Source: a virus. Taken from it: a stretch of 14,585 nucleotides of DNA. The notes under the pieces are model-generated. The model saw nothing but the letters and a program-made list of their open reading frames with translations, made no database searches and was not told the DNA's origin. This document shows, one piece after another, positions 7,498 to 9,372 of this stretch (within the stretch, counting starts at the first letter, position 1; each line of letters starts with the position of its first letter). The position numbers and the translations under genes are program-made. The stretch is from UHGV virus genome UHGV-0166592; one strand, 5' to 3'.

Positions 7498-8086
7498 ATC
7501 GATTAACAGAAACCACAGAACGATGAGGCTAACCGTGGGTAAGCATCACTGGAAAGTAGAAAAACAGCCTGAGTGGTACGTGAAAGCTGTCAGAAAAACT
7601 ATCGCAGCGTTGCCGGGTGGTTACGCTGAAGCAGCTGACTGGCTGGATGTAACAGAAAACGCATTATTTAACCGCCTTCGTGCCGATGGCGATCAGATTT
7701 TCCCGCTGGGATGGGCAATGATTTTGCAACGTGCTGGTGGAACTCACTTCATTGCTGACGCTGTGGCGCAGTCTGCAAATGGCGTCTTTGTGTCTCTTCC
7801 TGACGTCGAGGATGTGGACAACGCCGATATTAACCAGCGCCTGCTGGAAGTCATTGAACAGATTGGCAGTTATTCCAGACAGATTCGTTCGGCAATCGAA
7901 GACGGTGTGGTGGAACCGCATGAGAAGACAGCAATTAACGACGAGCTGTATCTCTCAATTTCGAAGCTGCAGGAGCATGCAGCACTGGTCTACAAAATCT
8001 TTTGCGTTTCAGAAAGTAGTGACGCCCGCGAGTGTGCAGCTCCGGGCGCCGTGGCGTGTCGTGACTGTGGAGAAACTAACGCATGA
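7478..8086 (+). CDS. CII-like / YdaT-family early regulator (start uncertain)
   Basis: The ORF immediately follows and overlaps cro. Possible starts are 7421, 7478 and 7490; none has a strong RBS. Its position after cro and its size fit the phage CII/YdaT-type regulators as I recall them. Confidence 0.5.
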
Positions 8087-8421
8087 ACAGTTTAACAACA
8101 CACTACCGTCGCTCGCAACTGATTGCGCTTCCTGTACCGGGTGGAAAAGCGAAGGTGGAGTATTGCTATGCAGTTAATGTACCAGGTGACAGGGAAATTG
8201 TAACCCACAGCTTTGCTGAGTGGGCTGTGGGTGATTTCAACCGGCAGAAGGAGACAGTCCTTTGCGACAAGTTAACCGCTGGTTCAAAGATCACTACGGA
8301 GTGCCCGTCAGAGTCATTCGTTGGGAGCCGGAAACACAACGAGTTATCTACCTCCGCGAAGGCTATGAGCATGAGTGCTTCAGCCCGCTCGAACAGTTTC
8401 GTCGTAAATTCAGGGAAATAG
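8083..8421 (+). CDS. Hypothetical protein, frame 1 (overlaps a better-looking alternative frame in its 3' half)
   Basis: ATG 8083 overlaps the upstream stop (ATGA), with GGAG 10 nt upstream. The C-terminal third translates to low-complexity S/A-rich sequence, suggesting that part is not the genuine frame. Confidence 0.3.
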
Positions 8422-8441
8422 AGGTCGGTCATGAGCACTAA
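8262..8441 (+). CDS. Candidate small protein, DUF4222-like, non-ATG (TTG) start
   Basis: The frame-3 translation [58 protein letters not shown] looks protein-like. There is no in-frame ATG; TTG 8262 lies 8 nt after a strong RBS AAGGAGA (8248..8254). It ends TAA 8439..8441, overlapping the replication gene start. Confidence 0.3.
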
Positions 8442-9372
8442 ATTAACCGGCTATGTATGGGATGGTTGCGCTGCATCAGGCATGAAATTATCCAGCGTGG
8501 CAATTATGGCCCGCCTGGCTGATTTCAGTAATGACGAAGGTGTGTGCTGGCCATCAATTGAAACCATTGCCCGCCAGATTGGCGCGGGGATGAGTACCGT
8601 CAGAACGGCTATCGCACGGCTGGAAGCAGAAGGCTGGTTAACGCGTAAGGCGCGTCGCCAGGGTAACCGCAATGCGTCGAATGTTTATCAGCTTAACGTT
8701 GCGAAGCTTCAGGCAGCGGCATTTTCTCAACTGTCAGATTCTGACCCGTCAAAATCTGACGCATCAAAATCTGACCCGTCAAAATTTGATGCGTCGAAAT
8801 CTGGCAAAAAAGCGGGTTTTCACCCGTCAGAATCTGGTGGGGATCCGTCAGTAAAATCAAAACATGATCCGTCAGATAAAAAAACTTCTCGTCCGGACGC
8901 TTCGCAACCGGACACGCAGACGGCTGAACAGGATTTTTTAACTCGCCATCCTGATGCGGTTGTATTCAGCCCTAAAAAGCGCCAGTGGGGGACGCAGGAT
9001 GATTTGACCTGCGCACAGTGGCTCTGGAAAAAAATCATCGCCCTGTACGAGCATGCCGCCGAATGTGACGGCGAGGTGGTTCGTCCCAAAGAACCGAACT
9101 GGACAGCCTGGGCAAACGAAATTCGCCTGATGTGTGTGCAGGATGGTCGTACTCATAAACAAATCTGCGAGATGTACAGCCGCGTCAGTCGCGATCCGTT
9201 CTGGTGCCGTAACGTGCTCAGCCCGTCGAAGCTGCGGGAAAAATGGGATGAGCTTTCCCTGCGCTTATCGCCGTCCATCAGCACATACACAGAAAAACGC
9301 GAAGACCCGTATTTCAAATCCAGTTACGACAACGTGGACTACAGCCAGATCCCGGCAGGATTCAGGGGGTGA
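8431..9372 (+). CDS. Replication initiation protein (N-terminal winged HTH, C-terminal DnaT-like domain)
   Basis: 313-aa ORF with RBS GAGG 6 nt before ATG 8431. The N-terminus (VAIMARLADFSNDEGVCWPSIETIARQIGAGMSTVRTAIARLEAEGWL) is the wHTH of phage initiators; the C-terminus (TCAQWLWKKIIALYEHAAE...) resembles DnaT-type domains. The central linker is encoded by iteron-like repeats. Confidence 0.8.
   Translation: MSTKLTGYVWDGCAASGMKLSSVAIMARLADFSNDEGVCWPSIETIARQIGAGMSTVRTAIARLEAEGWLTRKARRQGNRNASNVYQLNVAKLQAAAFSQLSDSDPSKSDASKSDPSKFDASKSGKKAGFHPSESGGDPSVKSKHDPSDKKTSRPDASQPDTQTAEQDFLTRHPDAVVFSPKKRQWGTQDDLTCAQWLWKKIIALYEHAAECDGEVVRPKEPNWTAWANEIRLMCVQDGRTHKQICEMYSRVSRDPFWCRNVLSPSKLREKWDELSLRLSPSISTYTEKREDPYFKSSYDNVDYSQIPAGFRG
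8731..8885 (+). repeat. Iteron-like 15-bp repeats inside the replication gene; candidate origin
   Basis: Five tandem 15-bp units at 8731..8805 (e.g. CCGTCAAAATCTGAC, GCATCAAAATCTGAC, CCGTCAAAATTTGAT), then three spaced copies at 8824, 8845 and 8869, followed by an A-rich tract. Confidence 0.6.

Follow-up and report, generated by a model that had tools for sequence, protein, structure and literature searches.

Analysis of the UHGV virus genome UHGV-0166592 (14,585 nt, the whole stretch being referred to below as the window) identified an interval, 8083-8441, in which two genes overlap out of frame on the plus strand. Frame 1 contains ymfM (8083-8421; 112 codons followed by TAG), the orthologue of Escherichia coli K-12 b1148. 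Frame 3, which is -1 relative to ymfM, contains a gene of the DUF4222 (RgdR) family (8262-8441) that encodes 59 aa, starts with TTG and ends with TAA at 8439-8441. We consider it very probable that the interval is a conserved dual-coding segment of e14/SfII-type lambdoid phages and specifies two independent proteins. The pair consists of a known, named gene whose second half is open but unconstrained and an RgdR-family gene absent from the K-12 reference annotation; the finding is real, and readings of it as an artefact, a pseudogene or a frameshift site are rejected. Each frame bears a selection signature of its own: in DUF4222 a low ratio of non-synonymous to synonymous differences per site (pN/pS), and in ymfM avoidance of stop codons together with a low pN/pS over the N-terminal domain.

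A first-pass annotation, made from the letters of the window alone, had described the two overlapping open reading frames (ORFs), the coupled ATG of the first and its low-complexity end, which is Ser-rich; this description was accurate in every detail. It had also pointed out that frame 3 lacks an ATG and that the TTG at 8262 is preceded by a strong ribosome-binding site, and both features are seen in the sequence: the Shine-Dalgarno (SD) sequence AAGGAG occupies 8248-8253, 8 nt before the TTG, and the open part of frame 3 starts just 27 nt upstream of that codon. The tentative assignment to DUF4222 was borne out by a match of the 59-aa peptide to Pfam DUF4222 (PF13973) with an E-value of 8.6e-19 and 67.3 bits (cut-off 27), covering profile positions 3-52 of 53. 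AlphaFold2 modelled the protein as an SH3/Tudor-like barrel with a predicted local distance difference test score (pLDDT) of 80.7. The NCBI Prokaryotic Genome Annotation Pipeline (PGAP) names the frame-3 ORF WP_001250269.1 in a 99.7%-identical prophage of avian pathogenic E. coli (APEC) O78; no NCBIfam model matched it. The overlap with ymfM amounts to 160 nt, and DUF4222 runs 20 nt past the end of ymfM into the next gene.

The SD sequence of ymfM, GGAG at 8069-8072, lies 10 nt before the ATG within the 3' end of ymfL (both SD assignments were read from the sequence). In a six-sequence alignment this GGAG block and the ymfM ATG were the best-conserved DNA of the junction. The complete ORF matched PHROG family phrog_1170 over its full length (E 3.8e-70), and no Pfam or NCBIfam match was obtained. 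In PHROGs the 112-aa ORF, an N-terminal version of 63 aa and DUF4222 belong to three different families, none with an assigned function. The ORF can be divided into an N-terminal domain (codons 1-60, 8083-8262), which is its conserved protein-coding part, and a tail (codons 61-112, 8263-8418), which is the +1-frame reading of the DUF4222 gene. Residues Q12, P17, G20, Y29 and V49 of the N-terminal domain were invariant in an alignment across five sequence types. Homologues of this domain (YmfM-N) also occur free-standing, as proteins of 55-68 aa called as genes; a full-library profile search returned a small family whose members fall into two length classes, of 55-68 aa and of 108-120 aa. AlphaFold2 gave pLDDT values of 70-86 for residues ~10-60 of YmfM, about 60 over residues 61-67 and about 33 for residues 68-112, and placed three strands and one helix (residues 42-66) in the N-terminal domain. 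YmfM is thus predicted to have a folded N-terminal domain of ~60 aa and a disordered tail of ~50 aa. The last 52 residues include 12 Ser; across relatives the tail is of near constant length and rich in Ser, Thr and Ala.

The locus was compared in a sample of 32 loci from genomes of different species, 80 viral contigs and several E. coli variants. The 32 species loci covered Escherichia, Shigella, Atlantibacter, Citrobacter, Buttiauxella, Enterobacter, Kosakonia, Raoultella, Pseudescherichia, Leclercia, Silvania, Pantoea and Mixta. Two records in the sample have implausible organism labels (L012 and L023, labelled Vagococcus sp. and a Geobacteraceae metagenome-assembled genome), yet carry the enterobacterial phage module; they are probably contaminating or mis-binned contigs. 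The overlapped arrangement was present in 95 loci from about 13 genera, including the 32 species loci and 62 viral contigs, which provided 72 unique DUF4222 DNAs and 82 unique ORFs. At all 95 loci ymfM occupied the +1 frame relative to DUF4222 and the third frame was closed. The geometry was equally regular in its details: among the 82 unique ORFs ymfM was 108-116 aa long in 79 and began with ATGA in 74, and in 73 a distance of 9 nt separated its end from the next in-frame ATG, although the downstream genes belong to several unrelated families. All relatives carried the DUF4222 start codon at one fixed position; of the unique ORFs 61 used ATG and 21 TTG, and one further type used GTG. In most sequence types a purine-rich, SD-like stretch came before this codon; the Pantoea/Mixta type lacked one. 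The same two-frame layout was found in 2037 E. coli records covering at least 80% of the query and in the isolated temperate phages SfII, SfIV, Kati and vB_EcoM-689R6.

These results bear directly on the suggestion, also made in the first-pass annotation, that the interval could be a frameshifted pseudogene or a sequencing indel, that is, one ancestral ORF broken around 8230-8265. Such an origin would account for two halves conserved in different frames and for a DUF4222 start that is non-ATG in this lineage. However, a layout shared by 95 loci of many genera, by the 2037 E. coli records and by isolated temperate phages does not fit a chance lesion, purifying selection persists on both halves (see below), and the DUF4222 start is ATG in most relatives. 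We therefore regard the probability of a broken gene as negligible.

A second, separated arrangement was found in 17 viral-contig loci and in L042-L046. Here a Rha/ANT gene stands between a free-standing 59-aa YmfM-N gene and DUF4222, and every gene junction is again a stop/start overlap. The Rha/ANT gene in L042-L046 (2634-2690) uses the signal ACCGGAGGGC...ATG, as DUF4222 does in the overlapped locus L012 (1470-1520), and its first codons, MVRQMN, resemble the MRELN of DUF4222. The shared signal and the likeness of the first codons suggest that the separated form arose by insertion of a Rha/ANT cassette at, or just after, the DUF4222 start. With its ORF conserved, its start position fixed among relatives and a free-standing counterpart in the separated arrangement, DUF4222 behaves as the TTG-initiated small gene that had been one of the options proposed for frame 3.

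The remaining option was a -1 frameshift fusion, in which ymfM-initiated ribosomes would slip near 8240-8265 and produce a ~118-aa protein composed of the N-terminal domain and DUF4222. The frame relationship is the appropriate one, since DUF4222 is -1 relative to ymfM at every overlapped locus, and in-frame YmfM-N/DUF4222 fusions do exist in public assemblies (P0001-P0005, P0011, P0049). In addition, the RNA of 8225-8300 (76 nt) folded better than shuffled sequences (z -2.5). The fusions are rare, however, with 1-14 members each, and P0001-P0005 change frame at differing points, which suggests that they are assembly errors or mutants. No slippery heptamer of the form X XXY YYZ is present in the window, so that the earlier remark on its absence from the junction holds, and the only matches among 30 unique junctions were two isolated, non-homologous ones. 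At five loci (L035, L020, L038, L025 and L026) the DUF4222 frame opens just 0-6 nt before its start codon. An ATG, GTG or TTG is instead conserved at one position, with the SD-like stretch before it in most relatives, and YmfM-N and DUF4222 are separate genes at the 17 viral-contig loci and L042-L046. Nor is the downstream RNA structure conserved: equivalent segments in eight relatives gave z values from -3.1 to +1.0 and no common fold. Taken together, this makes programmed frameshifting a highly improbable explanation. Two of the fusions, P0011 (4 members) and P0049 (1 member, from a metagenome), are more divergent than the others.

The same segment was considered for a different role. In the window, GAAGGA (8247-8252), which includes most of the DUF4222 SD, can pair with UCCUUU (8258-8263) and would thereby cover the first two bases of the TTG. 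A hairpin sequestering the SD as a coupling device was nevertheless rejected as a general feature, because the structure is not kept in the eight relatives.

Selection on each frame was estimated as pN/pS from pooled Nei-Gojobori counts. Over the first 55-60 codons of ymfM, frame 1 gave values of 0.30 (15 sequences of one type), 0.45, 0.48 and 0.12, while the other two frames gave about 0.7-1.5. A low ratio confined to frame 1 indicates that the N-terminus of ymfM is a real protein. Within the overlap the DUF4222 frame gave 0.10-0.32 and the ymfM frame 1.1-4, the latter being like the unused frame, and synonymous diversity in DUF4222 was not lowered (pS 0.55 versus 0.38 upstream). It follows that the amino-acid sequence of the tail is unconstrained; constraint at the amino-acid level was found in the overlap for the DUF4222 frame only, and not for both frames. 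The comparison with K-12, whose reference annotation labels the frame-1 ORF b1148, "cell division inhibitor YmfM" (SfiC), gave the same picture at closer range. Six differences from the e14 DNA fall within the ORF and cause three amino-acid changes, all in the tail, leaving the N-terminal domain identical. The three differences in the upstream half are all synonymous in frame 1; the three in the overlap are all synonymous in frame 3 and all non-synonymous in frame 1.

These data also answer the doubt that had been raised about frame 1. The tail is indeed not a conserved protein sequence; on the other hand, the first ~60 codons make up a genuine conserved domain, and selection keeps the ORF open over its entire length. 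A comparison of homologues had been proposed that would count against frame 3 if the frame-1 protein were conserved in full length and the frame-3 peptide were not. The outcome was neither way, as both frames are conserved, each in a different manner. The extreme form of the doubt is that DUF4222 is the sole gene, the frame-1 ORF being an annotation artefact and 8087-8261 an untranslated spacer. PGAP does leave 8087-8261 empty in thousands of genomes, the tail shows no amino-acid conservation, and frame 1 matches nothing in Pfam or NCBIfam. Yet the pN/pS of 0.12-0.48 over the first 55-60 codons is clearly exceeded in the other frames, the residue pattern of the N-terminal domain is kept across five sequence types, and its free-standing 55-68-aa homologues are called as genes. 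Conservation of the ATGA start and of the GGAG before it, the predicted fold of the N-terminal domain and a stop avoidance that is specific to the overlapped arrangement point in the same direction. We consider it improbable that DUF4222 stands alone here.

The stop avoidance is seen most clearly when the two arrangements are compared. Given the DUF4222 protein and E. coli codon usage, the probability of finding no stop in the +1 frame over the overlap is ~0.055 per sequence. None of the 72 unique overlapped DUF4222 sequences contained a +1-frame stop, whereas 15 of the 19 unique separated ones contained internal stops (Fisher P 7e-14). Codon choice in the overlapped genes was correspondingly one-sided: all 83 Val codons that precede a codon starting with A were GTT or GTC, and all 20 Leu codons before A were CTT or CTC and none CTG, although CTG made up 21 of the 33 Leu codons before C. 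The loci are phylogenetically related, so that both the Fisher P and these codon counts overstate independence and are indicative only. Even so, judged from the sequences, the open +1 frame alongside DUF4222 is not due to chance, and there is a clear contrast between the arrangements: the ymfM frame is kept open only where ymfM actually runs through.

What keeps the tail open could be explained by translational coupling. Ribosomes would reach ymfM from ymfL, the ATGA overlap coupling the two genes, and the DUF4222 protein would be initiated de novo at its own AAGGAG and TTG inside ymfM. Selection bars stops from the tail, with the result that ymfM ribosomes would always cross the DUF4222 gene; they would terminate inside the SD of the following gene, 9 nt before its ATG and in frame with it. 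This putative coupling junction (8419-8433) consists of the ymfM TAG (8419-8421), a 9-nt spacer and the in-frame ATG of the next gene (8431-8433), and the spacer together with G8421 forms GAGG (8421-8424). The operon would then be a chain of translationally coupled genes. The tail may accordingly serve as a translational bridge that carries ymfL/ymfM ribosomes over the embedded gene and keeps the replication gene coupled, a role to which we give an even chance.

The principal alternative accepts both genes as real but places the reason for the open tail in the protein, which would need a disordered Ser/Thr-rich extension for stability, localization or target binding and not for coupling. A tail of near constant length with an S/T/A-rich composition is what such a need would produce; the tail is predicted to be disordered, and the published filamentation (see below) was obtained with the full 112-aa ORF. 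On the other side, the N-terminal domain exists as a 55-68-aa stand-alone protein in other phages, the composition of the tail is largely dictated by the conserved DUF4222 codons, and the tail frame has the same pN/pS as the unused frame. Moreover, the position of the ymfM stop tracks the ATG of the next gene and not a feature of the protein. We regard a need for the extension as unlikely, though considerably more plausible than the other alternatives to two independent genes with a coupling tail.

Several observations, in addition to the relatedness of the loci, weigh against a conserved dual-coding segment with a bridging tail. The rationale for a bridge is weakened by the fact that the replication gene has an SD of its own, and ribosomes leaving the 59-aa forms of DUF4222 would also end near its ATG. 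The disordered tail may have a role at the level of composition. Two separated-arrangement DUF4222 genes, L042 and L047, likewise lack internal +1 stops. In one sequence type (L004, L005 and L038) frame 1 has no stop and runs into an ash/Rha gene. Finally, a search of the literature returned no direct expression evidence (ribosome profiling or peptides) for either product, and no paper that pairs ymfM with ribosome profiling.

The sequence type without a frame-1 stop has been annotated in two ways. In E. coli O26 RM8426 (L005, 1244-2395), and also in L006 and L038, PGAP calls a 383-aa "Rha family phage regulatory protein", which starts at the ymfM-like coupled ATG and, in the +1 frame, reads across all of DUF4222. 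Strain 2313 (L004), whose upstream region is near-identical, has DUF4222 and an ash-family gene annotated instead. The 383-aa protein is either a real fusion or the product of an over-extended start.

Overlaps of both kinds are known from other systems. In phage lambda, Rz and Rz1 form an out-of-frame embedded gene pair in which both frames are constrained and functional. The interval resembles them in that a gene equipped with an SD and a start codon of its own is embedded out of frame in a longer one, both genes being conserved. It differs in that amino-acid constraint acts on only one frame of the ymfM/DUF4222 overlap, the other being constrained solely against stops, and in that DUF4222 protrudes by 20 nt. 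The ATGA junctions of trp genes are a case of translational coupling by stop/start overlap. The ymfL-ymfM ATGA is of this type, and ymfM ends 9 nt before the next ATG; unlike trp-type coupling, however, the proposed bridge would take ~50 otherwise meaningless codons over an embedded gene. No description of a bridge-type ORF over an embedded gene was found in the literature. The locus offers a clean natural case of an ORF segment selected only to stay open, with a built-in control in the form separated by Rha/ANT. Selection of this kind is relevant to gene finders and to tests for overlapping genes based on dN/dS.

The finding affects how the K-12 gene is understood. The e14 ymfM (b1148)/SfiC region is the orthologous locus and has the same synteny, namely a cI-like gene, a cro-like gene, ymfL, ymfM and a replication gene; the prophage in the window is of the full-length phage type and not a remnant like e14. 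The SOS-associated division inhibitor SfiC was identified in 2020-21 with YmfM, the polypeptide of 112 aa. In the work of Ansari et al., the ymfM "open reading frame" was cloned in pBAD24 and ymfM was deleted by recombineering; expression of the cloned K-12 gene blocked Z-ring formation and caused filamentation. Earlier library clones spanned ymfL'-ymfM-ymfN'. In both the K-12 annotation and this functional work the 339-nt ORF counts as a single gene with a single product, whereas the present comparison shows its second half to be mainly the DUF4222 gene in another frame. If cloned from start to stop, the ymfM insert would, from its coordinates, carry the DUF4222 SD, the TTG and codons 1-53, which comprise the whole Pfam domain. 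The published data therefore leave open which polypeptide blocks Z-ring formation. Our estimate favors the N-terminal domain of YmfM as the filamentation product, with the DUF4222 protein a clear second and a small remainder for both or neither. It is a tentative but possible proposal that SfiC is, or requires, the embedded 59-aa DUF4222 protein and, more generally, that the tail is a "bridge ORF" kept open purely for coupled ribosomes. Every "ymfM" clone or deletion designed from the annotated ORF would carry or remove the DUF4222 protein. As ymfM is an experimentally named K-12 gene, and the locus has been taken to close the 35-year-old question of the identity of sfiC, assigning the phenotype to one polypeptide needs frame-specific mutants. 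Checked in silico on both translations, C8268T turns Gln3 of DUF4222 into a stop and is silent in ymfM (Asp62), and C8309G turns Ser76 of ymfM into a stop and is silent in DUF4222 (Val16).

The only characterized DUF4222 protein is RgdR (ECs_1581), encoded in prophage CP-933C/Sp7 of enterohaemorrhagic E. coli (EHEC) O157:H7. Experiments on RgdR have shown that it activates LEE1 and the type III secretion system (T3SS), represses motility and binds DNA weakly, and that an RGD tripeptide (residues 20-22) is important for the T3SS activation. The window protein aligned with RgdR in BLASTP at 41% identity over 49 aa (E 3e-11), and RgdR itself matches Pfam DUF4222 with an E-value of 2e-23. Both proteins are small and prophage-borne; RgdR has 99 aa, with N- and C-terminal extensions, versus 59 aa in the window. 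No RGD occurs anywhere in these 59 aa. The aligned region begins at residue 24 of RgdR and residue 8 of the window protein, and by extrapolation upstream VNR would stand opposite RGD. RgdR is located in a P4-like element and the window DUF4222 in a lambdoid prophage, both directly upstream of a replication gene. In E. coli O157:H7 Sakai (L127, 23304-23603, ECs_1581 = rgdR) the gene overlaps the start of the primase gene of the P4-like element by 4 nt. That DUF4222 genes lie immediately upstream of replication genes in lambdoid as well as P4-like elements hints at a connection with replication control.

Current annotations reflect one gene or the other. The K-12 reference contains ymfM only; PGAP genomes, including those of other K-12 derivatives, contain DUF4222 only. 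Of the phage records, SfII and Kati call frame 1 and 689R6 calls frame 3, and none of the records examined calls both. In thousands of prophages of E. coli, Shigella, Klebsiella and Enterobacter, the annotation thus lacks one of the two real genes. No paper in the searchable literature links ymfM to DUF4222 or to an overlapping gene.

The window as a whole represents an e14/SfII-type lambdoid prophage, with the interval in its early-right operon. A tRNA-Arg gene and the integrase at the left end are followed by a cI-like repressor gene, a cro-like gene and ymfL. Thousands of E. coli prophages match the DNA at 96-100% identity; over positions 8040-8480 identity is 100% with the isolated phage vB_EcoM-689R6 and ~98-99% with Shigella phages SfII and SfIV. 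ymfL (7535-8086, plus strand, coordinates from PGAP on the 99.7%-identical APEC O78 prophage) encodes a CII/CP76-like regulator, which matched Pfam Phage_CP76 (E 1.2e-13) and NCBIfam phage_reg_YmfL (167.7 bits, cut-off 90). Its TGA stop (8084-8086) shares bases with the ymfM ATG, the two forming ATGA at 8083-8086. Downstream lies a helix-turn-helix (HTH), replication-initiator-like gene of O-like/primosomal type (8431-9372, plus strand; Pfam HTH_36, E 4.2e-11), whose counterparts in phages are annotated as replication or primosomal protein. Its start falls within the final DUF4222 codons.

The ORF list further contained a minus-strand ORF of 90 aa with a GTG start (8166-8438), antisense to DUF4222. 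This was rejected as a gene candidate. Among 33 unique relatives only 21 keep the frame open, and the length of the ORF is not constant; it is therefore probably not a gene but the usual antisense shadow of a coding region.

A consensus scan of 7800-8600 on both strands found no sigma-70-like promoter, and a terminator scan of the same region gave a single weak terminator-like hairpin, which lies on the minus strand and is no more than would be expected by chance. In lambda, OOP RNA is antisense to the 3' end of cII. An antisense RNA in a similar position, ECS003, was described by a deep-sequencing study as the most abundant cis-antisense small RNA candidate of K-12; it is ~70 nt long on Northern blots and is encoded opposite the ymfM ribosome-binding site at the ymfL/ymfM junction. 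In window terms it would lie at ~8000-8110 on the minus strand. Its promoter was not located by the consensus scan of 7800-8600.

Rfam gave no gathering-score match in the interval, its sole match in the whole window being the tRNA. This tRNA-Arg gene (anticodon TCT, 1187-1263) lies 15 nt from a minus-strand ORF of 387 aa (1279-2442) that corresponds to the integrase in a related phage, and this end of the element is presumably the prophage attachment site.

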